Origin: Candidatus Bathyarchaeota archaeon
GTDB lineage: Archaea; Thermoproteota; Bathyarchaeia; Bathyarchaeales; Bathycorpusculaceae
Reading direction: 5' to 3'
NCBI GenBank assembly: GCA_963826715.1
Contig: CAWGYA010000002.1
Span: 224,001-288,000, forward strand
Length of the DNA stretch: 64,000 nt
The notes under the pieces are model-generated. The model worked only from the letters and a program-made list of their open reading frames with translations, made no database searches and was not told the DNA's origin. Of the stretch, positions 5,333 through 45,664 are shown in pieces; the stretch's first letter is position 1, and each line of letters starts with the position of its first letter. Position numbers and translations under genes: made by a program.

Positions 5333-5495
5333 TCTCCACTGCAAAAATTGGATATTCCTTAAAGCAAAACGGTAGCAAACAAATCACATGACCATAAATA
5401 GAGAAGGCTATAAAAAAACAAATTTCATGTGGCTTCTGGGCTAGAAATTTAAGTTAGCAATACACATTAAAAAGGCATCCAGATAGTGAATTGCT

Positions 5496-6398: not shown

Positions 6399-6401
6399 CG
6401 C

Positions 6402-6848
6402 TTAGACGGCGTAGGTTTTTTCTTTTTCTTTGACTTCTTTGAAGATAGCAGTTATCATTTGTTTTCCGTTGCATTTTTGGCATGGAACATCGAGGTCTTT
6501 AAAGACGTAGTCGCCACGCTGGAATTCACGCACTGTTTTGTAGTTGCAATCTTTGTTTTGACATTCGATTGTGGTCATTACCTTGGGAATTTCAATTTTC
6601 ACCTGAGCTGATTGCCTCCTTGATTGGTAAAGAAGGAACAATGACATTGCCATGGCGATTACGCCTATGCCTCCAAGAATCATTGCTGCCAACTGGTCCC
6701 CTTCCACAACGTAGGTTTCAAAGGCAATGAAGATAGCAACGACGGAAAGCGCCATTACTACCAGTACAATCATCGTCAGATAACTGGAGATTTTTTTGTT
6801 TGCAGATGAAGCTGAGTTTTGGGGTTGAGTCATATTAAACATCCTCAT
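6402..6848 (-). CDS. Membrane protein with two TM helices and a C-terminal Zn ribbon
   Basis: Two hydrophobic helices, then CxxxxC..REFQRGDYVFK..CxxC; abuts the DUF1512 gene. Confidence 0.75.
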   Translation of the reverse strand: MRMFNMTQPQNSASSANKKISSYLTMIVLVVMALSVVAIFIAFETYVVEGDQLAAMILGGIGVIAMAMSLFLLYQSRRQSAQVKIEIPKVMTTIECQNKDCNYKTVREFQRGDYVFKDLDVPCQKCNGKQMITAIFKEVKEKEKTYAV

Positions 6849-7957
6849 TATTGGCCCACTCCGATAGAGTTGCCTACACCAACGATAATGACTGTATCGC
6901 CTTCTTTGGTGCGTTCTTTAACGACATCTCTTACTCTGTCTATGACTTTGTCGACGGCGTCGTTGATTTCTCTTCGCATAGGCGAAACAGCGTCACCAAT
7001 GTCCTCTTTAACTATCACAGCATAGAGAGGAATGTTGTACTTTGTGACTTTCTCTTCAATCTTGAATTGGTCAACTCCTGGTCCGCCGATGGCTGCGCCG
7101 ATACCTTCAGCAACTTCACCGACCAACTCACCTTCGAGCTTAAGTCCAGCATCTATCATGATTACACTGGAGATTTTGCCCTTGTTTTCCTCGATGACAG
7201 TTTCAATTGCTTCGCCCGGCTTTCCTACGTTTCCACCTGGACCTTCTGCTTTGAGGACAAGCGCGGTGCGACCTTCAAAAGGTACAGTGGCAACCACGCA
7301 ATCCTTGGGAACTTTGCGAACTTCGAAACCATGCATGAGCTTAGATGCAATTAGGGGTCCAACTCCATCTCCGATGGGTTGACCATAAGCGAAGGCTTTT
7401 AATGCGCTTGAGTAAGCTTCAGCTTCTTTCATCACCATCGGCAAAATCATTTGCAGTTGCATAATTACATAGAGGCTGAGAGTTTTTTTGCCTTGGATAT
7501 AATAGTGGCGCACGACTTTGTAGATATAATTGAGCGCCATCGCGGCTTCCAGCGTATTTTCTAAGTTGTTAATTTGGATTTCGTTTGATGCCACTTCGGG
7601 CGCCATGAGCCTCACTTCTTCTTTTAGGCGTTCATCTCTAATATCTAAGATGTGGTCGAGCTTATTCACTATACCAGCTGGATCCATAGTTTGGGGACCG
7701 ATGGTAAAGTATTCTAGATATCGATCAACTCGTGCGGTGGGGTCTGTCGTCGGTTTTCCTATTTCCTTGAGGGTTTCTATGGCTGTTTTTTTGCCTTCGT
7801 CTTTTATGACGCGTAGTTTATGTAGCGAATTCTCAACTTCACGGACCATCACATACATTTGTATGCGTTGACCGTAGAAGATGAAAACTATAAAGAACAC
7901 ATACATGCCTAAACTGATAATTTGACTTATGGAGTCGCTTCCGGGAATCAAACTCAA
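6848..7957 (-). CDS. DUF1512 family protein
   Basis: GQPIGDGVGP, KAEGPGGNVG, IDAGLKLEGE..G.GAAIGGPG and GVGNSIGVGQ. Confidence 0.85.
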   Translation of the reverse strand: MSLIPGSDSISQIISLGMYVFFIVFIFYGQRIQMYVMVREVENSLHKLRVIKDEGKKTAIETLKEIGKPTTDPTARVDRYLEYFTIGPQTMDPAGIVNKLDHILDIRDERLKEEVRLMAPEVASNEIQINNLENTLEAAMALNYIYKVVRHYYIQGKKTLSLYVIMQLQMILPMVMKEAEAYSSALKAFAYGQPIGDGVGPLIASKLMHGFEVRKVPKDCVVATVPFEGRTALVLKAEGPGGNVGKPGEAIETVIEENKGKISSVIMIDAGLKLEGELVGEVAEGIGAAIGGPGVDQFKIEEKVTKYNIPLYAVIVKEDIGDAVSPMRREINDAVDKVIDRVRDVVKERTKEGDTVIIVGVGNSIGVGQ

Positions 7958-8043
7958 TCTTAAACACCACTTCTTTTCAAAAACTCTCTCTGCTTAGTTA
8001 TAAAGATATGCTATATCTCATCATGTTTGAATTGGGAAAAGTA

Positions 8044-8165
8044 GGTTGCCAGCTTTCCCAGGTTCACGTGGCCTAAGACCACACTACAGCTGGAAACGGA
8101 ACACGGTTTAACTTCTGAGTTCGGTATGGGATCAGGTGGAACCCGCGCCCTTTGACCGGCAAACC
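8044..8165 (-). rRNA. rrf: 5S rRNA, not linked to 16S/23S in this window
   Basis: Reverse complement reads GGTTTGCCGGTC...CACCTGATCCCATACCGAACTCAGAAGTTAAAC...GCTGGCAACC. The terminal helix pairs, the CCGAAC loop is conserved, and the length is about 122 nt. Confidence 0.95.
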
Positions 8166-8652
8166 TAAAACCTAACTGTTAGGCATCTCCTTATATACCT
8201 TTAGTTTTTCTGTTGCTGTTTTCAGTGGAAAATCAATGATTTTGACAATACTAATGTTTGTTAACAGAATATCAGACAAAATTCTGATTGTTGCGTCTTT
8301 CCGACACGTTTTTCTTCAGTCCCATTTACTTTAATCGAAGCGTTCCGTCTTTTTGAAGAGCTAAATCTCAAGTTATATAAAAGTAGGCAACGTGCCTGCC
8401 TGACTTTTTATTCATTCAAAGCTTAGTATTTTTTGTGTTATCTGGGGGGTAGCAAATCGCTGTTAGATAAGAGTTTGTTTCGGATTGAATCTAAACATCT
8501 GCAACATATATTAGACGACAATTAAGGATAAGTGTTATTTCCTAAAGATAGTTATTATCAGAGCGAAATATGCTTTTTTAACGAAAACTGCCTGCAACTA
8601 CCAGAACTCTAATAGGTGATAATGTTTTTCATAGCACCCGGGAGCTTCATAA

Positions 8653-9870
8653 ATGTCAAATGAGGAAAGCTACGTCGCAGATTTTCCCTCAGAAGTCATT
8701 AAAGAAGGCAGAGTACAAGTTTTAGTTCCAGACCTTACGGCTTATGGAGTTGTTCCCAGTGATTATGCACCCTCTAAAGCGCCAGTTTTCTATAACCCCG
8801 TCATGGAGTTCAATCGTGATCTATCAGTTTTAGCCTTCTGCGCTTACCAAAAGATGGTTAATCATGAACTCCGAATCTGCGAGCCTCTGACAAGCCAAGG
8901 CATCCGTGGCATCCGCTATGCAGCAGAAGTCCCAGATGTGAGTGAGGTTCATTTAAGCGACGTTAGTATCAAAGCCTGTGAGTTAGCCCACCACAACATT
9001 GAATTAAATCAGCTACAGGATAAGATAACACTGAAAAACAGTGACGCGAATCTAACCTTAAGTAACAATGCCTCGCCTAAAAAACGATTTGACATTATCG
9101 ACATAGACCCCTTTGGCACGCCAGCGCCTTATTTGGATTCTGCGTTTCGTGCTCTGAAAAATAAGGGATTATTGGCGGCTACGGCTACGGATTTGGCGCC
9201 TCTGTGCGGGGTTCATGCTAAAGCTTGCTTGCGCAAATATGGTGGCAAGCCGTTGCGCACAGAATATTGTCATGAGTTGGCTGTTCGGCTTCTGGCGGGT
9301 ACCATGGCTGTGACTGCTGCGAAATATGACATGGGCATAGAAGTTCTCTTTAGCCATAGCAGTGACCACTATATCCGAGTTTACGCCCAAATCAGTTATG
9401 GAGCTAAAAAAGGCGATGATAGCCTCAAAAACACAGGCTACATACTGCATTGTTTCAATTGTATGCACCGGGAAATAGCTCGCAGTTTATTTGGTTGCCC
9501 TACCTGTGGAGAATGTGGAGCAAAAATGGATTGGGCGGGACCATTGTGGATTGGCAAAATTGCGAACGAAGGGTTCATCGAACAGATATTAGTTGAGAAT
9601 CAGAGATTATCCTTTAGAAATCAAACAAAAATCTTAAAGATTCTCACCCAGATCAAAGCCGAATCTTATGCACCAATTACCTACTATGTAATTGACAAAC
9701 TCAGTGGAAAACTTAATTTACCTGCGCCTAGCAACCAGACTTTTCTATCTGCGCTCAAGAAAGCTGACTTTGAATCGGTGCTTACCCATTTTAATCCAAG
9801 AGGCATAAAAACTGATGCGCCAGCCTTAATGATGCATAAACTACTAAGAGACTTAGCAACAAAAGAGTAG
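8653..9870 (+). CDS. trm1: tRNA (guanine26-N2)-dimethyltransferase
   Basis: VFYNPVMEFNRDLS, GIRGIRY, DIDPFGTP, TATD, CxxC..CxxC and GPLWIG. Confidence 0.95.
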   Translation: MSNEESYVADFPSEVIKEGRVQVLVPDLTAYGVVPSDYAPSKAPVFYNPVMEFNRDLSVLAFCAYQKMVNHELRICEPLTSQGIRGIRYAAEVPDVSEVHLSDVSIKACELAHHNIELNQLQDKITLKNSDANLTLSNNASPKKRFDIIDIDPFGTPAPYLDSAFRALKNKGLLAATATDLAPLCGVHAKACLRKYGGKPLRTEYCHELAVRLLAGTMAVTAAKYDMGIEVLFSHSSDHYIRVYAQISYGAKKGDDSLKNTGYILHCFNCMHREIARSLFGCPTCGECGAKMDWAGPLWIGKIANEGFIEQILVENQRLSFRNQTKILKILTQIKAESYAPITYYVIDKLSGKLNLPAPSNQTFLSALKKADFESVLTHFNPRGIKTDAPALMMHKLLRDLATKE

Positions 9871-9941
9871 CGCCTTTTAGGGCAAACAACAAAAGTTAAA
9901 AGAGCAAAACCGAGTGTTTCTAAGTTAAGTAGTGAATAGTT

Positions 9942-10748
9942 ATGAATGATAAAATCGCAGTTATCGGCGCGGGTATGATGGGCAGCGCTATTATCAAAAG
10001 TCTCAAAAAAGGCGGCTACGGCGGAAAAATTACAGCTGTAGACATCGCCGTTGAGAAGCTGAAAGAACTCGAAAAACTCGGCATATCAATATCTACTGAT
10101 AATCGCTTAGCAGCCTCTGAAGCTGACATTATCTATGTCATTGTTAAACCAGGTGATGTAGCGAAGGTTCTCAAAGAAGTTGATAAAGAGATCAAGGGTA
10201 AACTGGTCATCTCGGCTGCTGCAACCGTTCCTTTGTCGTTTCTGTGTAAAAATGCGCCTGAAGCTAAAATCGTGCGGATAATGCCTAATCTCTGCGCTAT
10301 GGTGCAGGCATCCTATACAGCGTTTTGCTGCGAAGATAACGTCACGGAAGGAGACAAACAGAAAGTAAAAACGCTTCTAGATATGATTGGTATTTGCGAC
10401 GAAGTAAATGAGAAATATATGGATGCAATAACCGCTGTCAGCGGTAGCGGACCAGGCTACATTAGCATAATCATTGAGGCACTTACCTACGCAGGCTTAA
10501 AAGTTGGATTGCCTCGAAACTTAGCTCTTAGTTGCGCCGCCCAAACTTTAATGGGCACGGGCAAATTAGTCACGGAGATGCAGCTGGAACCAGCAAAAAT
10601 CAAGGATATGACAACAACTCCTGGCGGAACAACAATTGAAGCAATTTACCAACTGGAACAAAGTCGAATCCGCCCAGCCATGATACGCGCTATTGAGGAA
10701 GCCACCAAAAAAAGCGAAGCCATTCGAGACAAACTCAAACTTACTTAA
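9942..10748 (+). CDS. proC: Pyrroline-5-carboxylate reductase
   Basis: IGAGMMG, VKP, RIMPN, TAVSGSGP and TPGGTT. Confidence 0.95.
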   Translation: MNDKIAVIGAGMMGSAIIKSLKKGGYGGKITAVDIAVEKLKELEKLGISISTDNRLAASEADIIYVIVKPGDVAKVLKEVDKEIKGKLVISAAATVPLSFLCKNAPEAKIVRIMPNLCAMVQASYTAFCCEDNVTEGDKQKVKTLLDMIGICDEVNEKYMDAITAVSGSGPGYISIIIEALTYAGLKVGLPRNLALSCAAQTLMGTGKLVTEMQLEPAKIKDMTTTPGGTTIEAIYQLEQSRIRPAMIRAIEEATKKSEAIRDKLKLT

Positions 10749-10757
10749 GGGTCTACT

Positions 10758-11414
10758 ATGTTTGAAGCGGTTCTATTTGATTGGGATGGGACCCTTGCTG
10801 ATACAAAAAGTGTAATTGTTATTTCCTTCCAAAAAGCACTCAAAGAAATCAATCTCACTGTTTCAGCGCAATATATCGAACGTAGTATGGGGATTGGAGC
10901 AGCTGATACCTTCCGCGATATTTTAAAAGCTGATAGTAGGCGTATTGATGAAAAGGTTGTGGAGAAACTTGTTAAGCGGAAGAGTGAACTACAAATCGAA
11001 TTAGATAGGGATGTGAAGTTGTTTGAGGGCTCTCGTGATCTCCTTGATGAGTTACGGGGCAACTTGAAAATTGGGTTGGCTTCTATGAATAATCGTAATG
11101 TAATTATGGATTTGCTTCAAAATCAGAATTTAACCGACTATTTTGATGTTGTTTTAACTGTTGAAGCCATTTCTTATTCTAAGCCTAACCCAGAAATTTT
11201 TCTAAAGACTGCAAGAGCTCTAAATTCTAGCCCTGTGGGATGTGTGGTTTTTGAAGATTCTATCTTTGGAGTTAAGGCTGCGAAGGCGGCCGGTATGAGC
11301 TGCGTTGCCGTTACAACTGGCGCTTATAATGGTGAGGAACTTGCAGCTGCGAACCCGGATTTGATTGTAGAAAACTTGAAAGACGAAAAAATTTTGTCGT
11401 TTGTTTTAAAATGA
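10758..11414 (+). CDS. HAD-superfamily phosphatase (beta-phosphoglucomutase-like)
   Basis: FDWDGTL, KPNPEIF and FEDS..GV.AA.AAGM. Confidence 0.9.
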   Translation: MFEAVLFDWDGTLADTKSVIVISFQKALKEINLTVSAQYIERSMGIGAADTFRDILKADSRRIDEKVVEKLVKRKSELQIELDRDVKLFEGSRDLLDELRGNLKIGLASMNNRNVIMDLLQNQNLTDYFDVVLTVEAISYSKPNPEIFLKTARALNSSPVGCVVFEDSIFGVKAAKAAGMSCVAVTTGAYNGEELAAANPDLIVENLKDEKILSFVLK

Positions 11415-11507
11415 TAATACCTTGTGATTGTATAGATGCAGTCACATAGTTTTAAACATTTATCAAATACACTATTAATTTATCTTAATCAGTAGGAAGA
11501 AAAGATT

Positions 11508-11774
11508 TTGACACTTTCGAATAAAAAAACCAAGACCGCTCTGTATCAAGTTATGCTTTTAGATAATAACGAGCCCGAAGCTGTTGAAATCCAAGAGGCT
11601 GAGCAAATAAATTTTTGCCAGGTCAAAAAGCATCTAAAAAGTGGTGGGTCAGTCTTTATTACTAGTCGAGCCTCGCAAAAAATCCACCCACCCCAAACCA
11701 GAGCTCAAACGAACTATAATCGCTCCCGAAAAACTCTTGGACTACTCATCCATCAGCGTTTTAGAAGCCAATGA
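11508..11774 (+). CDS. Small hypothetical protein
   Basis: Clean 88-aa ORF filling the intergenic gap, with a GGSVFITS motif. Confidence 0.55.
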   Translation: MTLSNKKTKTALYQVMLLDNNEPEAVEIQEAEQINFCQVKKHLKSGGSVFITSRASQKIHPPQTRAQTNYNRSRKTLGLLIHQRFRSQ

Positions 11775-11848
11775 CTTATAGGTATGCTTCCAAGTTTTCG
11801 GCTGATTGAAACTCTTTTATAAAGCTTAGTTTTGATGAAATAGAGTAA

Positions 11849-13006
11849 TTAGTGGTGTATTTTTCTTAGCGTTTTTGGTATATAGGCACACCGTGGGTCG
11901 GAACCGTAAATGTCGCCGTTATAGAAAAGTGCTGCACTGCGACAGCCGCCGCAGATGTCTTTGTATTCGCAGACACCACATTTGCCCTTCAGGTTCTTCT
12001 TGTCTTTGATTTTGTTAAAGAAGTTGCTTTCTTGCATTTCTTGCCAAATTTGTTTTATCGGTCGGTTTTTGACGTTGCCAATTCGGTATACGTCATTATA
12101 GCTACAGGGGATAACGTCACCATTCTCGGCTATGCTCATGAATTTTCCGAAGAAACATCGACCTAAAAAGAAGCTGTTAAACCAGTTATCAAAATCAGGC
12201 ATACCCCGTTGCTTGGCGACTCTTGCGTAGAAGGGGATGTATACGTTGATGCTTGGAGTTTTTCCGTATTTTTGGGTTAAATCGTAGAGTTTGTTGCATA
12301 TCCATTCATACTGTGCGGGGGTTGGATCAGCTTTTAGGGTGCAGCTATCGCTGCTATAAGGAACAAAACCATGGAAAACGACCCATCGGGCACCATATTT
12401 TTTTGCCAGTTCCAACACATGAACCATGTCTGTCTCGTTTACGTTGGTAACGTCGCCGACGTTGGCAAAGGTGTAAACTAAAACATTTAGTAAATCAGCT
12501 TTTGCGAATCGCTCAATTGCTGAAATTGCCGATGAATATGCGCCTTTTCCGCGGATAGCTTCGTTTGTTTGCTCTGCGCCGTCTATGCTCACTGAGATTT
12601 TTGTCTTGTTTTTGATGATGTTTTTTATGGCTTTCTCATCTATCATGCGCCCGTCGGTTATGATGCTGGTGTTCAAACCAAGTCGTGTAGCATAATCGAG
12701 CACTTCGAATAGGTCTTTTCGAAGAAAGGGTTGGCCGCCTGTGATTCCAAAGAAGCTTGCCCCAAATTCAGCTACTTGGTCAACAATTTGTTTGGCAGAT
12801 TTGGTGTTGACTTCATCTGGAAAAGGGGCTTTGTTTGCTGAAATACAGTGAGCACAGTTACTGTCGCATGCGAAGGTACAACGCCAGGGAACGATTAGAA
12901 GGGGCCCTTTATTTTTCACGGGTTTGTCTCCTTTCATCGATGCTTTACTGAATGCTGCAATATTTGTATTTAATACTTTAGATTTGTTCATGCTTTTTTC
13001 AACCAT
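11849..13006 (-). CDS. Radical SAM/SPASM domain protein (NirJ/Ahb-like)
   Basis: CDSNCAHC (CxxxCxxC), TGGQP and VSIDG, followed by SPASM cysteines PC..KGKCGVCEYKDICGGCR..DPRC. Confidence 0.9.
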   Translation of the reverse strand: MVEKSMNKSKVLNTNIAAFSKASMKGDKPVKNKGPLLIVPWRCTFACDSNCAHCISANKAPFPDEVNTKSAKQIVDQVAEFGASFFGITGGQPFLRKDLFEVLDYATRLGLNTSIITDGRMIDEKAIKNIIKNKTKISVSIDGAEQTNEAIRGKGAYSSAISAIERFAKADLLNVLVYTFANVGDVTNVNETDMVHVLELAKKYGARWVVFHGFVPYSSDSCTLKADPTPAQYEWICNKLYDLTQKYGKTPSINVYIPFYARVAKQRGMPDFDNWFNSFFLGRCFFGKFMSIAENGDVIPCSYNDVYRIGNVKNRPIKQIWQEMQESNFFNKIKDKKNLKGKCGVCEYKDICGGCRSAALFYNGDIYGSDPRCAYIPKTLRKIHH

Positions 13007-32790: not shown

Positions 32791-33018
32791 GTGGAGACTA
32801 ATAAAACAGTATATTTCAAACAAAGAAAGAAAATGGAAAACAAAATTGCCAATATCTTCGAAAATGACATGAAAAGTGTTCCAAGTAGATTCAGAATTAT
32901 ATTAGCGGACGATATTTTATCCGCATTTGAAAGTAGAATTTATGCATTAAACCAAGCGCAAACAGAATTGCAGGTTAACGCAATAACCGAAGGAGATGTC
33001 CAAAATAAGGAGATCTAA
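32791..33018 (+). CDS. Small hypothetical protein
   Basis: 75-aa ORF coupled to the downstream HTH gene; contains ILADD...AFE.R. Confidence 0.55.
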   Translation: METNKTVYFKQRKKMENKIANIFENDMKSVPSRFRIILADDILSAFESRIYALNQAQTELQVNAITEGDVQNKEI

Positions 33019-33322
33019 ACTCGAAACGTACGTTGACATCCTTAGTTTATTGGCGCACAAGGGACCGTTAAAGCTTACACACATAATGCACAAAGCCAAT
33101 GTCAACTACAACGTACTAAAAGAAAACTTAACCTTCCTTATCAAACAAGGCTTGGTTGAAGAACACACCATTAGGATAGAACGGACAGTTTTCACAGTAA
33201 CTCAACGTGGAATAACCGTGTTAAAGTATTTCCGAGAACTCACCCAAGCGCTTCCTATTTCTGAAGTGACTCTAAGTCAAAAAAGTAGTTCTTCTGATAA
33301 ATTTTACAAAAACAGTACCTAA
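32996..33322 (+). CDS. Small winged-helix DNA-binding protein
   Basis: RRSKLE..DIL..L...LKLTHIM.KAN.N...L..L...GL..T..G pattern. Confidence 0.85.
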   Translation: MSKIRRSKLETYVDILSLLAHKGPLKLTHIMHKANVNYNVLKENLTFLIKQGLVEEHTIRIERTVFTVTQRGITVLKYFRELTQALPISEVTLSQKSSSSDKFYKNST

Positions 33323-33728: not shown

Positions 33729-33763
33729 GGAAATTTGGTGGGGTCGGCCGGATTTGAACCGAC
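33729..33763. repeat. att site, distal copy of the tRNA-Trp 3' end
   Basis: GGAAATTTGGTGGGGTCGGCCGGATTTGAACCGAC, identical to 41285-41319. Confidence 0.97.
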
Positions 33764-33828
33764 TTCACTTTCTCTTTTTTGAAAAGAGAACCTGAGCTAA
33801 GAGAAAAATTATTGTTTTTGTTGTTCAT
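33729..33828 (-). CDS. int(N): N-terminal fragment of the split integrase
   Basis: ATG 33828 gives MNNKNNNFSLSSGSLFKKEKVK-SVQIRPTPPNF; the att site is read in the same frame as in int(C). Confidence 0.85.
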
Positions 33829-33870
33829 GTTCTTTGCCTAAAGAAATAAAGGGAATACACACTTATAAAG

Positions 33871-33885
33871 TAGTATTTTATACTA
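33871..33885. promoter_or_regulatory. Palindrome TAGTAT-TTT-ATACTA between the divergent int(N) and RHH genes
   Basis: Perfect 6-bp arms centred in a 74-bp divergent gap. Confidence 0.45.
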
Positions 33886-33902
33886 TCAAGTAGGATAGAG
33901 TT

Positions 33903-34055
33903 ATGAAAACCAAAGTAAGTGCAACATTAGATCAAGCTATTTTAGAATGGATAGACTCTCAAGTCAAAACTCAAAGATTCCGAAATAGAAGTCACGCTAT
34001 TGATTATGCCTTAACCCAACTCATAAACCAAGGAAAAACCGAGAATATAATGTAA
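33903..34055 (+). CDS. Ribbon-helix-helix (CopG-like) protein, 50 aa
   Basis: Below the ORF-track cutoff: MKTKVSATLDQAILEWIDSQVKTQRFRNRSHAIDYALTQLINQGKTENIM. Confidence 0.88.
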   Translation: MKTKVSATLDQAILEWIDSQVKTQRFRNRSHAIDYALTQLINQGKTENIM

Positions 34056-34103
34056 AGAAAAAGAGAAAAGGTTCACTTTTAGACTTCGATTGTTTGCGTT
34101 ACC

Positions 34104-34514
34104 TCATAATAATATCTCGACAAGGCGGGATTTTTCAGTGATAACACGAGAGTTAACCGTTACCGTTGGCTCACTATAACTTAGAATAACATCTATTTGG
34201 TCTGCAACATCACGCAATTTTTGAGCCGTTTCATGTGTTCCCGGAAGATAACCACATTCAAGCCTATACCAACCATGCTCTTTATCAACGCGGGGTTTTG
34301 ACTCTGGAGCTTTCCTACTGTAAGCGATAAACTGCACTTCAGAACCATACTTGTAACTATTAGTTACCAAACCAATAGCGAATGTGCTATCCGGAAAAAC
34401 CAACTTTTCTTTTTCGTTAATTGTTGCCGTTGTCAAATGGCTAGTCGTTGGAGAAATAAGCAAATCGTAGTAGTAAGCACCGTAACGAATTTTTGGCTCA
34501 GAAACAAATGTCAA
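34104..34514 (-). CDS. Element orphan protein
   Basis: Last gene of a chain coupled by 4-nt overlaps. Confidence 0.7.
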   Translation of the reverse strand: MTFVSEPKIRYGAYYYDLLISPTTSHLTTATINEKEKLVFPDSTFAIGLVTNSYKYGSEVQFIAYSRKAPESKPRVDKEHGWYRLECGYLPGTHETAQKLRDVADQIDVILSYSEPTVTVNSRVITEKSRLVEILL

Positions 34515-35164
34515 CGCTTAAAACTCCAAGGACTAGTGTTTACAAGTTCAGAAGAATGATAAGCGCATACCTGATACTCCTTAGCGACCTTGCCTTTAGG
34601 GTGATAAATCATAACTGATGTAGCTTCGTTTTTGCAACTGCCAATCATACAACGGTTTTCTAATTCAGAGTCATTCACAATAGCGTTAGAATTGCAATTA
34701 ACAATTCGTCTAGGTCTATTCTGAACGTTCTGAGTAAAACTTAACTCTCCAATAGCAACATTAACAACAGTTTCTTTTCTATCAGGTTCAATTTTCGTAT
34801 TAGCTAAGGCATGCTTTTTTATCATAGTTGCTGTTACGTAAGCCACGCTGTATTCGCAGAGTATTTTACAAACTGAGGTTCCATTTTGCTTTACTGCATT
34901 ATTTAAGGCTGTGCGTAGGTTTTTTGGGCAATCAAAACTTAAATGCGTCATTTCTCCATTAAATAAGGCTTGCTTAGTCGCTAAATCATCTATGGAAAAA
35001 GGCATGCTTTCAGCAATACGTAAATCCATAGTTGTTTTAGCTTTTTTGTTGTGTTTGGTTGTGAATGCTTTAGGATTGTAGTTTATGGGTTGTTCATTAA
35101 TTAAATAATCATGCTCTTCTGTGGGGTTTTGAAATGCTAAATCTTTGGGGTTAGTGGCTGTCAT
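34511..35164 (-). CDS. Element protein with an internal RHH-like segment and C-terminal Zn finger
   Basis: HLSFDCPKNLRTALNNAVKQNGTSVCKIL (RHH-like) and CMIGSC...CAYH. Confidence 0.7.
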   Translation of the reverse strand: MTATNPKDLAFQNPTEEHDYLINEQPINYNPKAFTTKHNKKAKTTMDLRIAESMPFSIDDLATKQALFNGEMTHLSFDCPKNLRTALNNAVKQNGTSVCKILCEYSVAYVTATMIKKHALANTKIEPDRKETVVNVAIGELSFTQNVQNRPRRIVNCNSNAIVNDSELENRCMIGSCKNEATSVMIYHPKGKVAKEYQVCAYHSSELVNTSPWSFKR

Positions 35165-35325
35165 GCTGTTGCCTTCTTACAGTTTTTGCCGTTGTTGGTT
35201 AAGCAAACTTTGTGTGGTTCCCAACCGTCATAAAAGTCGCAAGTTCCATCTAGAACTTTTGAGCAGAAGAAACTGTATGGAGTGATGTCTTTTAGCAAAA
35301 GTTTTAAATGAAATTCTCTGCTCAA
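35161..35325 (-). CDS. 54-aa microprotein with four Cys
   Basis: TTG start gives MSREFHLKLLLKDITPYSFFCSKVLDGTCDFYDGWEPHKVCLTNNGKNCKKATA; 4-nt overlaps with both neighbours. Confidence 0.7.
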   Translation of the reverse strand: MSREFHLKLLLKDITPYSFFCSKVLDGTCDFYDGWEPHKVCLTNNGKNCKKATA

Positions 35326-35567
35326 GTAGATACAGCTCCCATACTATAGTTTAGTTGGGGTGCGGCTGCTTGTCGAGGTTGATCTTGGCGGGTCGCCTCA
35401 CAAGCTACAGTTAACCAACAGTGAACGTTTAAGCCGTCGTCGCTGGGCATTATTTTGCTCCGGACGCTTAACGGGAAAACGTTTTCTAAGGTTTCAAGGG
35501 TTTTTAAAACTCGGGTTTGTTCCCCGATTATTTTTATGCTTATTTTGGTGTTTGTGTTCATGTTCAA
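35322..35567 (-). CDS. Element orphan protein
   Basis: First gene of the leftward coupled operon. Confidence 0.65.
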   Translation of the reverse strand: MNMNTNTKISIKIIGEQTRVLKTLETLENVFPLSVRSKIMPSDDGLNVHCWLTVACEATRQDQPRQAAAPQLNYSMGAVST

Positions 35568-35620
35568 CTTTCACTTGAACCGTTGCTGTGCCTCCAAGCA
35601 ACAGTTGGCTTCAAACATTT

Positions 35621-35677
35621 TATCGCTACGTAGCTATTCGCACCGATATTAATATAAGTATCGCTACGTAGTGATAC
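35621..35677. promoter_or_regulatory. Repeated palindromic sites in the divergent control region
   Basis: TATCGCTACGTAG occurs at 35621 and 35659; the second extends to the 20-bp near-palindrome GTATCGCTACGTAGTGATAC; ATATTAATAT lies between them. Confidence 0.65.
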
Positions 35678-35687
35678 AGGGTTAATT

Positions 35688-36263
35688 ATGCCGAGAAACA
35701 AGGAAGCCGTGAGAAAAGCACAAGAAAAATATCGAGATAAGAAACGGCAAGAGTTGGCAGAAAAAGCTAAAGTAATTAGGGAATATAAAAAACAAACTGA
35801 TAAGAAATTAGTCAACATCCTTTTTAATCGTTTATCGGAACAAGAGCAGCAACAAATAAAACCGCTCATAGATGCTGAAAAATTTCAAGAAGCAAAAAGA
35901 GCACTGGTTTTATTACAATATCAAAAAAGGGAAAAACAAGCTTTTGACATTAATAATTTTAAGCATCAACTTGTGAAAAAATATGTTCATTCTGATCCTG
36001 AATACTTAATACTTACACAAGAAGGACAGGCCTTCTATGAAAAATCTTTTCTCGCTTTCCTGAATTTCTTACAAACAACTCATGATTTAGAATTTCTAAA
36101 ACAAAGCGAGGATAAGGATGTTCTTTCAAAAATTGACATCTATCATACAAAACAATCCAAAGAAATAATGGCTGAGTTGGATCAATTCTTAAACAAAAAT
36201 TTAGTTAAATCAACCAAAGAAGTTAGAAAAGAAAGAGATAATCAGGGAAAAATAAACCTTTAA
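35688..36263 (+). CDS. Element protein with a basic N-terminal helix (putative DNA binding)
   Basis: MPRNKEAVRKAQEKYRDKKRQELAEK followed by helical sequence. Confidence 0.7.
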   Translation: MPRNKEAVRKAQEKYRDKKRQELAEKAKVIREYKKQTDKKLVNILFNRLSEQEQQQIKPLIDAEKFQEAKRALVLLQYQKREKQAFDINNFKHQLVKKYVHSDPEYLILTQEGQAFYEKSFLAFLNFLQTTHDLEFLKQSEDKDVLSKIDIYHTKQSKEIMAELDQFLNKNLVKSTKEVRKERDNQGKINL

Positions 36264-36303
36264 AATGGGTTAATTAAGCTAAATCCGTTAGGAGAATCAA
36301 CTG

Positions 36304-36567
36304 TTGACTGTATCCCCCCCAATAAGAAGCGACATATTATTAGCCTTATGGAAAAATTACCATATCTTAAAGGATTTACGCGAAGCAATAGAACAAAACA
36401 AAAAAGATGTTTCCCCCAAAAACAAATTTCAAGTTTACATTATTCAGGTTCAAGCTCAACTTTGCAAGGCTATTCTCGCAGGGTTAAGCGATCAGGAGCT
36501 AGAACTTAGATTAAAGGTGCTTGAGGAAAAATTAGCTAACGGAGTGTTAATCCCAAAACATGAATAA
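36304..36567 (+). CDS. Element orphan helical protein
   Basis: Upstream AGGAG; C-terminal ELELRLKVLEEKL. Confidence 0.7.
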   Translation: MTVSPPIRSDILLALWKNYHILKDLREAIEQNKKDVSPKNKFQVYIIQVQAQLCKAILAGLSDQELELRLKVLEEKLANGVLIPKHE

Positions 36568-37180
36568 CCTAAATAGAAAACTAACCAAACTAGAAAACAA
36601 CGTTGTTTCAGAAAATCCAAACCCTCAAGAAACCTTTTTGTCAATCCATAACGAAGCGGAACAAGCGTTACACGAACACGCAGCAAAAATACACAGAAAC
36701 CTAGTTAACAACTCTAACATTACCCTCGACATGATGTTTGATACTTCTATCCCGCTCATTAAACGTAATGAAATGGCTAAAGCACAACTGGCAGAGTATG
36801 ATCAAAACGACTTAGCTATACTTAATTCAAGTGATAACTTGATAAAACGTCGGATTCTTGACTTATTCATTAATGACCAAACAGCTATTTACCCAGAACA
36901 TAAGAACTATTTTTCAGAGCGTTTAATGTGGTTTCTATCAGAGTTTCAAGAATACGTAAAGCAGCAAACACATGCGACAATAATTGAGGAAAGCCCAGAA
37001 TATCAAGCAAACTTAGATGACGATAATGCGCCGGATTTAGTTGAAGAATATTTTAAAACCCAGCGTGACACTTTTACGCTTGAAAGCTGGGATGTTTTTT
37101 TTGATACTTACGTTTTGCCGATAGTAAGGAAACATCTAAAAGAAAAGTCAGAATTAGCCAAATCTGTTACTATTTCATAA
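36560..37180 (+). CDS. Element orphan helical protein
   Basis: Starts MNNLNRKLTKLEN; overlaps the preceding gene. Confidence 0.75.
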   Translation: MNNLNRKLTKLENNVVSENPNPQETFLSIHNEAEQALHEHAAKIHRNLVNNSNITLDMMFDTSIPLIKRNEMAKAQLAEYDQNDLAILNSSDNLIKRRILDLFINDQTAIYPEHKNYFSERLMWFLSEFQEYVKQQTHATIIEESPEYQANLDDDNAPDLVEEYFKTQRDTFTLESWDVFFDTYVLPIVRKHLKEKSELAKSVTIS

Positions 37181-37583
37181 TTGGAGTAGGATAAATTTTC
37201 TCTAGTTCTGGAATCAAAGCCCTTGCTTCAGTTAATTGATCGGTTAAGCTTGCAATATCTTGATTCGCTTGATCTATTTCAATATTCAAAGTTTCAATTT
37301 GCGCATTCAACTGAATTACATCATTATTCTTTGACAAGCTAGTCTTCTCAAGGTTACTGAGTTGACTCTGCAAATTAGTAATTTGTTTATTTAACTGAGC
37401 TACTTCGCGGTTTTTACTGCTTATTTCACTTTGAAGTTTGGAAATGTCGTTTATCAAATTTCCATGATCAGTTAAGTATGCTTGATAAGAGAACCAGCCT
37501 AACACTGAAAAAAGGAAAATACATAAAGCGATTGCTGAGATTTTTTTTGCGGTTGACTTTCTTATTGAAACGGTTTCTGACAT
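37170..37583 (-). CDS. Membrane-anchored coiled-coil protein (paralog 1)
   Basis: N-terminal TM helix followed by about 85 aa of heptad repeat. Confidence 0.8.
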   Translation of the reverse strand: MSETVSIRKSTAKKISAIALCIFLFSVLGWFSYQAYLTDHGNLINDISKLQSEISSKNREVAQLNKQITNLQSQLSNLEKTSLSKNNDVIQLNAQIETLNIEIDQANQDIASLTDQLTEARALIPELEKIYPTPIMK

Positions 37584-37627
37584 TTTATTTGGCTACCCTT
37601 TTTCCTTTTTTAAATCTTCACTTGCTT

Positions 37628-38050
37628 TTACTTAACGATAACAACTGGGCCTTCTGCTATTCCTGCCTGTAATATTTTGATATAATGTTGTGCGTCTGAT
37701 AATTCGTTTGTCAAGGTTGTAATTTTATTGTTAGCTTGTCCGAGTTCAACATTTAGAGCATTTATTTCTGAGCTTAACTGTACTATATCATCACTCGTAG
37801 GGGAAATAATTTTTGTCAGATTATTTATTTGACTCTGTAAGTCAGCAATTTGTATGTTTAATTGTTCAATGTCAGAGGATTTATTGTTCAATTGGTTTTG
37901 GAGTTGAGAAATATTCTTTGTTAGAGCAACACGTGGAAGAAAGACTCTATCATAGAGGAAGTAACTAGCAGCGGAAAGTACGATAATAATACAAGTTACT
38001 GCAATTAATTTCTTGACCGTTGATTTCTTGACTACAATTTTTTCCGACAT
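37628..38050 (-). CDS. Membrane-anchored coiled-coil protein (paralog 2)
   Basis: MSEKIVVKKSTVKK, TM helix and heptads; collinear with 37170-37583. Confidence 0.8.
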   Translation of the reverse strand: MSEKIVVKKSTVKKLIAVTCIIIVLSAASYFLYDRVFLPRVALTKNISQLQNQLNNKSSDIEQLNIQIADLQSQINNLTKIISPTSDDIVQLSSEINALNVELGQANNKITTLTNELSDAQHYIKILQAGIAEGPVVIVK

Positions 38051-38159
38051 GTACTTGCCCCGCAAAATTGAATTGTTTTACTATTTGATACATTTTGCTT
38101 ATTTAATTTGCCACTTCCTTTCTTTAAGGCTGTTCCTTGCAGATTGAATCACTATTAGC

Positions 38160-38717
38160 TTAACACTCTTTTTCACGAATCTTTTTTTTATTCTCAACTT
38201 TCAGCACTTTATTTCTATTCTTATTCCAGAGAATATCAATAATTATCGCTGCAACTATTATGGGAATAGAGAATACAAGAATCAGAGCAATACCATATTG
38301 GTCGAATAAATAGGAATAATCTGGAAAATAATATCGATATAGTGTCACACAGTAATCCTGAATTGCCCAAACAGGAGTGTAGAATGGATCGATTGAATTA
38401 GCAAGTTTGTTTGATATTTCCCCATAAGGGACACGAAGAACTGTGGTTGTCAACCATGACCAAAACTGTAATCTCAAACCAACAAAAAATATAGATCCAG
38501 TAAGCATGCTTAATGGCGTATAGAAAAATAAAATCCGTTTCCAAAATTGATAATCCTTAAAGAAATCCTTGAATTTCACTTGATAGAGAATTGCTGCTAT
38601 ACCGATTGTTAATCCGACAATATATCCGACATGAGCAATAGTCTGAGAACTATAGCCATCCAGTAAAGATAGAACTATAGTTTGAAAATCTGTCTCTGAG
38701 ATAGCATACAAGCTCAT
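38160..38717 (-). CDS. Element membrane protein (3-4 TM helices)
   Basis: Several hydrophobic helices and a basic C-terminal tail. Confidence 0.7.
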   Translation of the reverse strand: MSLYAISETDFQTIVLSLLDGYSSQTIAHVGYIVGLTIGIAAILYQVKFKDFFKDYQFWKRILFFYTPLSMLTGSIFFVGLRLQFWSWLTTTVLRVPYGEISNKLANSIDPFYTPVWAIQDYCVTLYRYYFPDYSYLFDQYGIALILVFSIPIIVAAIIIDILWNKNRNKVLKVENKKKIREKEC

Positions 38718-39095
38718 GTTTGCTAAATCGTTCGTTTTTCTATATTTAATTTGCTATTTTAGTTTACGGCACAGATTGACAAGCGTGCGCCGTATGGTTG
38801 ACGTTGAACTAATCAAAGTCGGAAAAAATAACTCTATTGCATTAGCACAATCGCCACGCATATGGTCGTCTTACAACTTCCTCTAAAATCCTTTCTGCAT
38901 CTTCGAGGTTTTCAGCTACGACAATTATCTCTACATTCTAGTCTAAATCTGAGGTAAATATAAAACGTGGCATATCTTTCCATCACTAAAAACATTCTTA
39001 CAAGGGTACAAATAAAGTTAGCGAAATATTAGCCCACTTTTTTTGACTTTTTTAGCGATGCAAAAACTTTAACCGTCAATAGATAGAAATAACTT

Positions 39096-39548
39096 TTGAA
39101 AGAGAAAATGTCAAAAAAGTTTTTGGTTACAGGTTTGGTTATTGGTCTTCTAATAGGGTTATCCATAGGTTATTTTTTGCCAAGCCTTATTTCAAATCAA
39201 TTAAGTCTTAATGAAATTACGGATCATAAAGTATCTTTAACGGTAACCAACATGGCAATTCAAGTAACTGGAGATTACTATCTTCTTCGAGTAAGTGCAA
39301 ACTTACCTTATAACAGCCTGACTTTATTCAATTGCGTAATGAAAGTGAGTTATCTAACGGAAAATAATCTTTGGAAAACTGCTTCTGAGAATATTGGACT
39401 TGTAAATTATGGTCAATATGTAGAGCCACACGTTAAGTTAGATGCTGATTTCAAAATTGGTGACCCAACACTTGAACACAGTAATTACTATCACTCATAT
39501 GATGGCGCCAATGTTGAAGTCGAAGTATATGGTTATATTGAGCCATAG
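39096..39548 (+). CDS. Membrane-anchored beta-rich protein
   Basis: KK+GLxxGLxxG TM helix followed by a beta-sandwich-like domain. Confidence 0.7.
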   Translation: MKEKMSKKFLVTGLVIGLLIGLSIGYFLPSLISNQLSLNEITDHKVSLTVTNMAIQVTGDYYLLRVSANLPYNSLTLFNCVMKVSYLTENNLWKTASENIGLVNYGQYVEPHVKLDADFKIGDPTLEHSNYYHSYDGANVEVEVYGYIEP

Positions 39549-39673
39549 CCGAGTTCGAAAAAATGTCGAATTAATTATGTTTGATAAGGTCAAAACATAG
39601 ATGGATAACTTATATGAAATCAACAAGTTTTAAAAAGAAACTGAGTCAAATACTAAGTAATAGAGGGTTCGAT

Positions 39674-40096
39674 ATGTTTAGCGCTAAGAATCCATTTGAA
39701 CCTCCAGTGAAGAAGAGAGCAACAATACGCGCAGAAGTGAAGAAGGCAGTTTTTGAACGAGCAAAAGGTCAATGTGAAAGCAGAAATTGTAATAAAAATC
39801 TAAAGTGGGGAAGTAGAGGTACAGGAACTAGAGGAGTATTCCACCATACGAGGAGTCCTTCTATATCTCCAACTGAAAAAACCGTAAGATTAGTTTGTCC
39901 AGATTGTCATTCAAATTTACATGAAATCAAAACAAGAACTAAAAATCACCCTCTTATAGGTCAAACAAAAGAAAGGGTCGTTGTTAGAAAAGATACAAAA
40001 CGCAAGGTAAAACAAGTTAGAAAAAAAGGGCTATCAAAAAGAAAACAGATTTTTCAAGTTTTCCAAATTCGTCACTTAAGTTTCCTTGAGGAATAA
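39674..40096 (+). CDS. HNH-like nuclease / Zn-finger protein
   Basis: VKKAVFERAKGQCESRNC...FHH...LVCPDCHSNLH. Confidence 0.72.
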   Translation: MFSAKNPFEPPVKKRATIRAEVKKAVFERAKGQCESRNCNKNLKWGSRGTGTRGVFHHTRSPSISPTEKTVRLVCPDCHSNLHEIKTRTKNHPLIGQTKERVVVRKDTKRKVKQVRKKGLSKRKQIFQVFQIRHLSFLEE

Positions 40097-40098
40097 GA

Positions 40099-40212
40099 AT
40101 GACATCACCAAAAATAAAAAAGGGAAAATGGGAGAAAGAACGAGAACGTAACAAAGATGGGTCTTGGAGAAAAAAACGTAAAGACGCCGGAAAGAAACGT
40201 AAGAAAAAGTAA
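40099..40212 (+). CDS. 37-aa highly basic microprotein
   Basis: MTSPKIKKGKWEKERERNKDGSWRKKRKDAGKKRKKK; starts 2 nt after the HNH stop. Confidence 0.55.
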   Translation: MTSPKIKKGKWEKERERNKDGSWRKKRKDAGKKRKKK

Positions 40213-40406
40213 CTTATTTCCGTTAAGTTGCTGTGAACAAAATGCTAGAAAAAAGGCAGTGAACTTTATAATTAAATGGAAGACTTCACCCTCAAAGTTA
40301 AAAGAACTTAGCAACAACTAGAAGAAGAACCAGTTGTTATGGTGCGTATCGCAGATGATGCAGAGATAATGATTACTCGGGAATACTAAAAATAGAAGAA
40401 AAAAAC

Positions 40407-41319
40407 CTATTTGGATTTTCTAAACAATTTAACCCCTTCCATGTCACATACAAACTCAAAACCCGACTCAACCAACAACATAGCTTCATCTGGATTTTTA
40501 GCGCATTTACAAACAAAACTCTGATCCTCAAAATGCACCAAATGAGTATAAACCAACGTATTCATAATGTTAACATGTCCAAGCAACTGCTTAACGTGCA
40601 AAATATCCTTAGTTTTATGATATTCATAAGAGGCTTTCCAGTGTCGAAAAGTTTTAAGGTTAATGCTCCTTAATCGGGGATTCTCCAACTTTTTAGCCAT
40701 GTATATTCGTGAGTCATAAAAATTCCGGGAAAACCGTTTTAACCTACTAGTTGGTGAGTCTCTGAAAACGTACTCGTTACGTTTCTTTAGACCCATAAGC
40801 ATAGCTAAAAGTTTACTTGATACTCTTAATGTTCTAGGTAAACTGTTCTTTTCAGGGTTATTGATTGTAACAACACTATTCTGGAAATCAATATCAATCC
40901 ATTTTAAAGCAAAGGCTTCTCCCGGTCTAGCACCTGTATCTTTAAGCATCTGAAGAAAGCAAGAAGTTTTCTTTCCACAGCCAGCAACCAAAGCATCAAC
41001 TTCACTTTCGGTTGGCACAAACGGTAATTTCTTTACAGCTCTATAGATTGGCTTCTCAAAAGGCAACTTTACATATTCACAGTATCGGGCGTATTTGTCG
41101 ACCAAAATCTGCTTTCGCGCTTCACTGACTTTCTTATTTGCTATAAACGTCTTAACTGCTTCAGTATCATTTAGAAAAACATTCTTTTCTAGGTACTTGA
41201 AAACGTCGCTGTATCCTTGAAGGGTAGCTTCCCGATAGCCCTTATTTTTTAGCCAAACAAGAAATTGCAAAACTGGGGGTGATCGGAAATTTGGTGGGGT
41301 CGGCCGGATTTGAACCGAC
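40407..41319 (-). CDS. int(C): catalytic part of the tyrosine integrase
   Basis: TGARPGE (R), EKNS (K), LKTFRH (KxxR), LLGH and TLVY (Y). The ORF-track extension to 41504 is tRNA sequence. Confidence 0.93.
41285..41319. repeat. att site overlapping the tRNA-Trp T-arm and 3' end
   Basis: Identical to 33729-33763. Confidence 0.97.
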
Positions 41320-41467
41320 GACCTCTGCCCAACAGCCGCGCGAAGCGACTGTTTACGGGTTTCTCTATGACCGCTCCAGAGATTCGTCATTCTCCTCGCG
41401 GAGTCAGCAAACCCGTGTGTGCTTGCTTTCTGGAGCCCGTCGTCATACCTGTCTAGACTACGACCCC
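41292..41467 (-). tRNA. tRNA-Trp(CCA) with two introns (37/38: 41361-41429; about 43/44: 41325-41354)
   Basis: Acceptor stem GGGGTCG/CGACCCC, anticodon arm ACGGG-CTCCAGA-CCCGT, T-arm GTCGG-TTCAAAT-CCGGC and encoded CCA; 77 nt after removing 69+30 nt. Confidence 0.92.
41361..41429 (-). ncRNA. Intron-encoded box C/D guide RNA
   Basis: ACGGGTTT-G-CTGA (guide plus D'), hairpin CTCC-GCGA-GGAG, ATGACGA (C'), and TCTGGAGC complementary to the anticodon loop. Confidence 0.7.
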
Positions 41468-45510: not shown

Positions 45511-45664
45511 TGGTCGGGAGAGCAGGATTTGAACCTGCGACAGCTCGGTATCTGTGGCCTAGACAGGCTAGAATGAAGCCCACCAGTGGTAGACCTCTAC
45601 AGCTTCTCCGCCAACTATACGAGATAGATGGCTCGAGAGCTCTGCCAGGCTGAGCTACCTCCCG
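45511..45664 (-). tRNA. tRNA-Tyr(GTA) with two introns (30/31, 30 nt; 37/38, 47 nt)
   Basis: C1:G72 acceptor CGGGAGG/TCTCCCG, spliced anticodon arm CTCGG-CTGTAGA-CCGAG, BHB motifs at both introns and encoded CCA. Confidence 0.9.

Follow-up and report, generated by a model that had tools for sequence, protein, structure and literature searches.

An element integrated in the tRNA-Trp gene of a Bathyarchaeota archaeon, with an attachment core probably inside the open frame of a XerA-like integrase

In the fuselloviruses SSV1 and SSV2, which exemplify type I or "suicidal" integration, the attachment site of the mobile form (attP) lies inside the integrase open reading frame (ORF), near its 5' end (in the SSV1 record, a 44-bp site at 1735-1778 within int at 961-1968), the target is a tRNA gene, and the two parts of the gene, Int(N) and Int(C), come to lie at opposite ends of the integrated element. 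Integrases that split themselves are also found in the pTN3 and pT26-2 families of Thermococcales, Archaeoglobales, and a few Methanosarcinales, which are plasmid-like elements of 8-38 kb residing in tRNA genes, with related copies that pervade single genomes and decayed, entrapped remnants, as described in the available portions of PMC7253208 and PMC8371274. According to the accessible part of the latter, the SSV, pTN3-like, and pT26-2-like suicidal integrases share the PF16795 domain and seemingly one origin, and are known mostly from hyperthermophiles. The split architecture has so far been described mainly in these heat-loving archaea and for an integrase family other than the one considered below. 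Here, we analyze a locus with the same layout in a 64,000-nt stretch of the genome of a Candidatus Bathyarchaeota archaeon (contig CAWGYA010000002.1; the whole stretch is hereafter called the window, the genome G000, and the other genomes and loci compared bear G and L numbers). It holds an integrative element, located in a tRNA-Trp gene, whose tyrosine recombinase ORF probably contains the attP core near its 5' end; we assign this explanation, the best we have found, a probability of roughly 70%.

The element lies between two identical 35-bp direct repeats with a start-to-start distance of 7,556 bp (Table 1), when the chance expectation for an exact 35-mer pair within 11 kb is about 1e-13 by our estimate. 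It is 7,521 bp long (7,556 bp with one repeat included), and these 7,521 bp between the repeats have a G+C content of 35.1%, against 41.5% in the 2.64-Mb genome. No tRNA is called at the site by default ARAGORN or by an Rfam scan of the window; ARAGORN with its intron search places a tRNA-Trp(cca) over the right repeat, with an 84-nt intron by its call. From this placement, the right repeat comprises the T-arm, the 3' acceptor strand, the CCA, and 7 nt downstream. An earlier reading of the same DNA, made from its sequence only, had already described the repeats, their spacing, and the tRNA-Trp target, all of which withstood rechecking, and the target and exact boundaries of the integrated element are established. 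Since default ARAGORN and the Rfam gathering thresholds miss intron-bearing tRNAs such as Trp and Arg(tct), tRNA-targeted elements are easily overlooked in such genomes; an intron-bearing tRNA-Arg(tct) is also called at window 45511-45664 (genome C2:269511-269664).

Contigs assembled from four soil-metagenome runs of one study offered a view of the population. All four runs yielded contigs that match parts of the element at 99-100% identity. One of the four (X1) also has a 296-nt contig in which 33728 is followed directly by 41285, with 0 mismatches and 35 nt fitting either side, as expected of an empty chromosomal site (attB). Other contigs of the same run cover the element, and yet another ends exactly at 41284, as expected for an assembly graph that branches at the repeat. 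Because this empty-site contig was found, the element can be regarded as a discrete unit that some genomes of the population have and others lack, namely a presence/absence polymorphism with limits exactly at the repeats. It is a real element that has been mobile recently. In congeners, the ferredoxin-DedA-tRNA-Trp neighborhood is kept (G015, G005, G007, and G003), with an interval of 4-6 kb between DedA and tRNA-Trp that is unrelated to the element and with tRNA-Trp copies 84-94% identical to that of the window. None of the six congener loci in which the tRNA end was found has an integrase after tRNA-Trp; a T-rich spacer stands there instead. In one congener locus (L022, G005:C35:54534-55791), the two parts of tRNA-Trp that match the window (query 6-150 and 161-232) are separated by about 1 kb, which suggests an insertion of that size in or near the tRNA intron.

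On the minus strand, both repeat copies read SVQIRPTPPNF in the integrase frame. At the left end, ATG 33828 opens a leader of 22 codons, MNNKNNNFSLSSGSLFKKEKVK, that runs up to the repeat, with a stop 3 codons upstream of this ATG and a TATA-like TTTATAAG about 40 nt upstream. At the right end, the Int(C) frame is free of stops over 303 amino acids (aa), from 41318 to 40410, with a stop at 40407, so that the joined frame amounts to 22 + 303 = 325 aa, by count and not from a built sequence. The repeat peptide, the 22-codon N-terminus, and the length of the join all agree with the sequence-only reading, and the continuity of the frame can be taken as observed. We propose that integration proceeds by site-specific recombination between attP and the 3' end of tRNA-Trp. 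In the free circle, promoter, ATG, 22-codon leader, 11 att-encoded codons, and a 292-codon XerA-like body would form one gene of 325 codons, and this long form would be the protein made; after integration, promoter, ATG, and leader would be left at attL, and the enzyme body, devoid of its start, would stand at attR directly behind the tRNA, where Int(C) would be expressed poorly or not at all. Integration would accordingly deprive the gene of its presumed promoter, its ATG, and 22 codons, and of no part of the recombinase fold.

The class of the enzyme is firmly established: it is a PF00589 tyrosine recombinase (E 1.1e-15; 58.2 bits for a cut-off of 27.1) resembling XerA. Its ARPGE (Arg), KTFRH (K-x-x-R, where XerA has H-x-x-R), LGH (His), and VYTH (Tyr) motifs align to the catalytic positions of archaeal XerA, a placement that covers these residues and leaves aside the beta-hairpin Lys; the recombinase assignment of the sequence-only reading is hence borne out. 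When searched against the PDB, the family profile retrieved the XerA structures 5hxy (Thermoplasma, 7.5e-18) and 4a8e (Pyrococcus, 7.9e-17), which have the same two-domain body and catalytic residues and are the closest solved relatives by sequence, as well as IntI4, XerH, and XerD. XerA itself resolves chromosome dimers at dif and is not carried by a mobile element, and since the integrase scores 71.5 bits on the NCBIfam XerA model NF040815, below the equivalog cut-off of 220, it is a relative of XerA rather than an orthologue. Its named homologues are from Bathyarchaeia or from metagenome-assembled genomes of Bathyarchaeota. A tRNA gene overlaps the start of the frame in 15 of the 63 metagenome loci with a readable 5' end, when 23 of the 63 metagenome integrases (L040-L104) are instead extended at the N-terminus by about 90-130 aa with a CxxC...CxxC zinc ribbon.

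Membership in the SSV1/pTN3 integrase family, to which the sequence-only reading had likened the enzyme, did not hold. The integrase has no match to PF16795 at E<=0.1, and genome-wide this family yields three weak matches below the cut-off, all elsewhere than at the element. PF00589 is matched by all 44 aligned relatives, for which the 25 families listed (of 31) do not include PF16795. As a control, SSV1 Int (NC_001338) scores 1.5e-61 on PF16795 and 2.6e-34 on PF07935, without a PF00589 match, whereas the enzyme studied here matches PF00589 only. Likewise, the family profile aligns to SSV1 Int with an hhalign probability of 0.2%, and it does not retrieve the SSV1 integrase from the PDB at E<=10. 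The extent of the cut also differs: the SSV1 split removes about 64 codons or more, including a domain (D-335, PF07935, residues 7-74), when only 22 codons and no domain would be lost here. The integrase thus appears to work like the SSV type, with its att site in the ORF, without belonging to the SSV family. A bacterial precedent is offered by the Int of myxophage Mx8, whose gene is likewise altered by integration because attP lies within it; there, the site is at the 3' end, and the C-terminus is exchanged instead of the start being lost.

The idea that the leader is translated together with the enzyme finds its main support in other genomes, where the leader DNA recurs beside att sites. In all three elements that are readable at both ends, the leader is in frame with the enzyme, across three different tRNA att cores. 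In G000, with 35-bp repeats at tRNA-Trp, both ends of the element read the peptide given above; in the 9.6-kb element of G469 (L134), with 25-bp repeats at an intron-bearing tRNA, the leader ORF and a 305-aa integrase ORF both read GSSPTLRT; and in the 3.3-kb element of G085 (L120), with 29-bp repeats at tRNA-Cys, both ends read MGSIPIPSS, and the tRNA-side frame goes on to encode a stub of 30 residues that can be aligned with the N-terminus of a paralogous integrase. Although the three elements use two different reading frames through the T-loop, every join is in frame. Leaders that start with ATG and carry the motif M...[LF]SLS[SR]GSL..K.. are present at all five undecayed attL ends in sense orientation (G000, G469, G085, G043, and G004); the parts upstream of the motif are unrelated in sequence, and their differences in length are multiples of three. 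In the decayed remnants found at tRNA-Trp in G108, which is of the same genus as G000, and in G086, the ATG has been lost and stops have been gained. We regard this evidence as good, albeit not conclusive, for an ORF that probably spans attP.

Several observations nonetheless weigh against this interpretation, and many of them are shared with an alternative according to which int starts at an in-frame TTG (41270-41268), yields 287 aa, and stays intact after integration. The att core would then lie in the 5' leader or promoter region of the gene, and the frame opened by the distal ATG would be no protein but conserved DNA, such as an arm-type binding site, a terminator, or a regulatory hairpin. 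In favor of this alternative, positions 2-255 of the 263 of NF040815 align to residues 18-261 of Int(C), the homologue P0005 (74% identical, 287 aa) starts with Met where Int(C) has TTG 41270, and many homologues are called at 283-287 aa. However, since gene callers start at the first ATG after the tRNA, such lengths are partly an annotation artefact, and no Shine-Dalgarno-like motif was seen before TTG 41270 when the sequence was read by eye. The leader is 22 aa long, with no domain and no family match, and 22 codons would stay open in element DNA with a probability of 0.23. Its motif is fused to the enzyme in none of the 120 homologues listed, an intact gene of the 325-aa type was seen nowhere, and a search for the 43-aa leader peptide among longer proteins gave no match, the last being a weak point. 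A frame of 365 aa is moreover open through the whole tRNA, which makes read-through from the tRNA promoter conceivable. In addition, a conserved inverted repeat lies within the leader DNA, whose conservation could therefore serve a DNA or RNA structure rather than coding. The inverted-repeat motif is found in 4 of 401 genomes of the class, with 0 control hits; the stability of the hairpin is not significant (z-score -1.41), and because the core stem is invariant, covariation cannot be judged and the structure of the hairpin is not shown. In three loci (L159, L126, and L148), the leader motif abuts a tRNA in antisense: that of L159 lacks the ATG, that of L126 has stops on both sides, and in L148 the frame is open upstream of the motif, without a start being seen.

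The three in-frame cases share ancestry and are therefore not fully independent, and the empty site of run X1 may represent strains that were never infected rather than excision. The sequence-only reading had proposed to look for both junctions; the empty attB was recovered in one X1 contig, but a circular attP junction is not listed among the soil contigs, which has little weight either way given that contigs drop rare forms. What speaks against an internal start at TTG 41270 is the leader in frame in three of three elements with three att cores and two T-loop frames, together with an ATG kept at five of five undecayed sense ends despite unrelated sequence upstream of the motif. We thus hold an internal start to be possible, though rather unlikely, and retain an ORF that contains the attP core as the preferred explanation. 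The sequence-only reading went further in stating that the integrase is rebuilt only on excision. Its premise stands, in that the att core does lie in an open frame joining leader to body; the statement itself is overstated and unproven, because the whole XerA-like body is in Int(C) and TTG 41270 would give 287 aa. A "suicidal" consequence, namely a dead Int(C) after integration, is possible. As the loss is limited to a short leader, the element offers a mild instance in which to ask how elements of this kind ever leave the chromosome, the activity of Int(C) lending itself to direct comparison with that of the full-length form.

Besides the integrase, the element encodes 13 cargo ORFs in four divergent operons (Table 1). 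The sequence-only reading had recognized no Rep, primase, helicase, packaging ATPase, or capsid in the cargo, and none of the 13 is recognizable as a replication (Rep), primase, helicase, ATPase, packaging, capsid, conjugation, or known defence gene, here when compared with Pfam, PHROGs, NCBIfam, and PADLOC, the last two giving weak nuclease-type matches for c13 only. The first ORF, c01, is homologous to a protein of the L134 element, at 49% over 39 aa; it is divergent from Int(N) and lies next to the presumed int promoter, of which it is a likely regulator. The next, c02, has 42 homologues (mean column identity 62%), all unnamed or "hypothetical" and from Bathyarchaeia where the host is named. 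Its AlphaFold2 (AF2) model has a predicted local distance difference test (pLDDT) score of 88.2, and Foldseek finds no match to it at E<=0.001 (best E 0.24 in the PDB and 0.076 in BFVD, with low TM-scores); it is a well-conserved protein with a confidently predicted fold unlike anything solved. The contigs that encode eight of the 42 homologues are 6.5-8.9 kb long and could represent free circles. The neighboring c03 has 75 cluster representatives and an AF2 model that is confident at residues ~70-120 and 170-217; we read its core as a putative ribbon-helix-helix (RHH) from the strand-helix-helix pattern of the alignment, with no family match. Concerning the other operons, a protein atlas gave scores <=0.85 or no usable match for c06 and c08, c09 and c10 are paralogues (37.5% identical), Pfam returned for c09-c11 only coiled-coil noise below cut-offs, and the membrane segments of c09-c12 were read by eye from the sequences.

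With such a gene content, the element is best filed as a cryptic integrative element, which could be plasmid-like or a helper-dependent satellite as regards its life style. Its att repeats and integrase, together with the lack of viral, conjugative, or casposon signature genes, correspond to what defines cryptic integrated elements in the available part of PMC6563490. The Thaumarchaeota elements described there are likewise small, bounded by an integrase, located in tRNA genes of mesophiles, and without viral or plasmid hallmarks; one of them, NitEve-E3, has a split integrase that this source calls SSV1-like, a parallel drawn from its description only and for a different host class. Of the three options left by the sequence-only reading (virus, satellite, or integrative element), the last is accordingly kept, the second is possible, and the first is disfavored.

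Dependence on a helper virus or plasmid for spread is unlikely in our view, and it has several points to recommend it. Genes for replication or packaging are missing from the element, and its relative L134 encodes an HK97-gp10-like neck/tail-completion protein (PF04883, 24.3 bits for a cut-off of 21.4; phrog_5, E 2.2e-10) and a helix-turn-helix (HTH) protein with weak small-terminase matches, two proteins that hint at satellite behavior in this element family. The 18 matches to the integrase found in the genome, itself included, could moreover complement it in trans. Nevertheless, the G000 element lacks these virus-derived genes, no helper was identified, and the genes of L134 could be unrelated cargo. 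Models for such a dependence exist in pSSVi or pSSVx with fuselloviruses and in the satellites of bacterial phages. As a matter of fact, pSSVi and pXZ1 are Sulfolobus elements of about 6-7 kb that have self-splitting integrases of the SSV type and a tRNA target, pSSVi spreading only with a helper fusellovirus; their integrase family and host are other than those described here, and they are expected to have no genes in common with the element.

That the element is a provirus, derived from a small enveloped or spindle-shaped archaeal virus with divergent structural proteins and with c09-c12 as virion proteins, appears quite unlikely. Four of the 13 cargo ORFs are membrane-anchored as judged by eye, the combination of small size and self-splitting integrase recalls fuselloviruses, and a spindle-shaped provirus with a tyrosine recombinase, Huangdivirus, is reported from Bathyarchaeia in the accessible part of PMC10848311. 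Yet, PHROG and Pfam comparisons revealed neither an ATPase, DnaA-like or otherwise, nor a VP1-like protein with its two hydrophobic helices, although no search dedicated to two-helix proteins among small ORFs was made. The cargo shares nothing with fuselloviruses, and at 7.5 kb the element would be smaller than any fusellovirus known to us. Nor did the spacer and virome comparisons suggested by the sequence-only reading uncover a viral link: there is no spacer-like match of at least 26 nt in the element's own genome, the one genome searched, and IMG/VR has no relative of either the integrase or c02. Finally, an assembly artefact or chance repeat is highly improbable, since, even if the assembly is of metagenome type with 8 contigs and no contig listed bridges the occupied junction, the exact 35-bp repeat lies on a tRNA end with an integrase frame leaving it, the same architecture exists in other genomes, and the metagenome runs contain both near-identical element pieces (four of four) and the exact empty site (one).

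The sequence-only reading had also called the element probably undescribed, and we did not find it to match any family described so far. Neither the element DNA nor c02 is matched in phage and archaeal-virus (50,697 records) or plasmid collections; the four families of the Bathyarchaeia virus survey PMC10848311, in its available portion, include none like the element; and we found no paper joining an SSV-type integrase with Bathyarchaeota, a lineage that the available text of the suicidal-integrase papers PMC7253208 and PMC8371274 does not mention, with the proviso for both statements that supplements could hold such cases. The pTN3 and pT26-2 families, as covered by the portions cited above, differ from the element by the presence of PF16795, unmatched here, and by hosts that are mostly hyperthermophiles rather than an archaeon found in soil runs, and the att core of 35 bp is shorter than the 40-60 bp stated in the accessible part of the review PMC8371274.

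Several relatives clarify what travels with the integrase. In L134 (CAZWPI010000003.1, 1392-11008), the 9.6-kb element mentioned above, c02 is accompanied by the integrase, the leader, and an RHH protein, and in L135 by c03; c02 and the leader also recur in the decayed tRNA-Trp remnants of G086 and G108. L134 further encodes a 608-aa protein without family match and a second short recombinase-like ORF. Two other resemblances to it were discarded: its 169-aa ORF is too weakly similar to c06 (E 0.051) to be counted as a homologue, and the 138-aa ORF upstream of its c02 is unrelated to c03 (probability 0.2%). Within G000, a decayed relative stands at tRNA-Ser(GCT) (G000:C7:226859-232500; L108 ~2860-8500), with a 312-aa integrase frame leaving the tRNA. 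It shares with the element 614 bp at 91% identity, in the c13 region, and 143 bp at 80%, from which it follows that such elements exchange modules; its own c13-like gene is broken, and the C-terminus of c08 is 72% identical to a stretch of this remnant. No left copy of the tRNA-Ser end was found for it within 35 kb, allowing up to 4 mismatches in 24 nt. Several of the 18 integrase matches of G000 adjoin tRNA genes, and an exact repeat of at least 18 bp within 80 kb exists at 2 of 16 integrase hits, namely this element and the locus at C2:86.5-91.7 kb, where the two copies of a 23-bp repeat stand 5.1 kb apart. Among the approximately 16 paralogous integrase loci of G000, several have a tRNA (Cys, Pro, Leu, Phe, His, or Val) at the 3' end of int, which is a different geometry.

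When searched in IMG/VR, the leader DNA motif returned 16 loci; 15 of them, in unrelated contigs, matched by chance, and the remaining one was real (L148, IMGVR_UViG_3300031862_000546). There, at ~4850-13000, a leader-like module with the same inverted repeat, abutting the antisense tRNA, adjoins a type I restriction-modification operon, in which PHROG hits point to an HsdR-like helicase, a methyltransferase, and a specificity subunit, and on account of this neighborhood the same end module seems to carry defence cargo elsewhere. The L120 element (G085:C12, 4640-7996) is a cassette without integrase between its repeats, in which the enzyme is reduced to a 39-codon stub and the cargo consists of two secreted proteins, of 359 and 272 aa, that are rich in Pro and Thr and have an anchor at the C-terminus.

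If the attP core indeed lies in the ORF, an att-in-ORF integrase would exist in the XerA-like family and in an archaeal class abundant in soil and sediment, which would imply either repeated evolution of this architecture or a distribution far wider than that described. Going further, we tentatively envision, as a hypothesis that we rate below even odds, a second origin of self-splitting in a XerA-like PF00589 lineage widespread in soil and sediment Bathyarchaeia, in which the leader and its inverted repeat would act as a directionality switch; the integrases would mobilize a family of undescribed elements of ~3-10 kb that would have c02 and an RHH/zinc-ribbon protein at their core and would be active now. 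With regard to this last point, the co-occurrence of occupied and empty sites in one soil sample suggests present activity. In any case, this family of elements adds to the very small known mobilome of Bathyarchaeia.

Table 1. Features of the element and its target, with positions in the window
Feature	Position	Strand	Description
attL	33729..33763	n/a	Left 35-bp repeat copy; partial copy of the tRNA-Trp 3' end; 33728 joined to 41285 in the empty-site contig
Int(N)	33764..33828	minus	ATG 33828 and 21 further codons, MNNKNNNFSLSSGSLFKKEKVK, reading into attL
Inverted repeat	33770..33790	minus	9-bp stem, 3-nt loop; conserved; inside the Int(N) coding stretch
c01 (50 aa)	33903..34055	plus	Ribbon-helix-helix; phrog_4738 transcriptional repressor, E 2.1e-5; weak Pfam RHH_1/ParD
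c02 (136 aa)	34104..34514	minus	Conserved, function unassigned; predicted fold without match
c03 (217 aa)	34511..35164	minus	Putative RHH-like core and C-terminal Cys/His zinc ribbon; stop overlaps c02 start
c04 (54 aa), c05 (81 aa)	35161..35567	minus	Small ORFs preceding c03 in its leftward operon; no family match
c06 (191 aa), c07 (87 aa), c08 (206 aa)	35688..37180	plus	Rightward operon; no family match
c09 (137 aa), c10 (145 aa), c11 (185 aa)	37170..38717	minus	c09 and c10, N-terminal membrane anchor and coiled coil; c11, multi-pass membrane protein
c12 (150 aa)	39096..39548	plus	N-terminal hydrophobic anchor, beta-rich body; no family match
c13 (171 aa)	39581..40096	plus	CxxC...HH...CxxCH, weakly HNH-nuclease-like; phrog_119, E 3.1e-4; PADLOC endonuclease effector, E 4.3e-5
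Int(C)	40407..41318	minus	303-codon frame starting inside attR; whole XerA-like tyrosine recombinase (PF00589, XerA alignment)
attR	41285..41319	n/a	Right repeat copy; functional 3' end of tRNA-Trp
tRNA-Trp(CCA)	41292..41467	minus	Long anticodon-loop intron; integration target; ARAGORN intron search

Outside the element, a gene for an Sso10a-family chromatin protein stands just left of attL (window 32996-33322; NF053610, E 7.8e-14, below the cut-off), and the DNA matches that it finds at many congener loci indicate a multi-copy family in the genus. Farther away, the window contains a 5S rRNA gene on the minus strand at 8044-8163 (Rfam RF00001, 69.3 bits).

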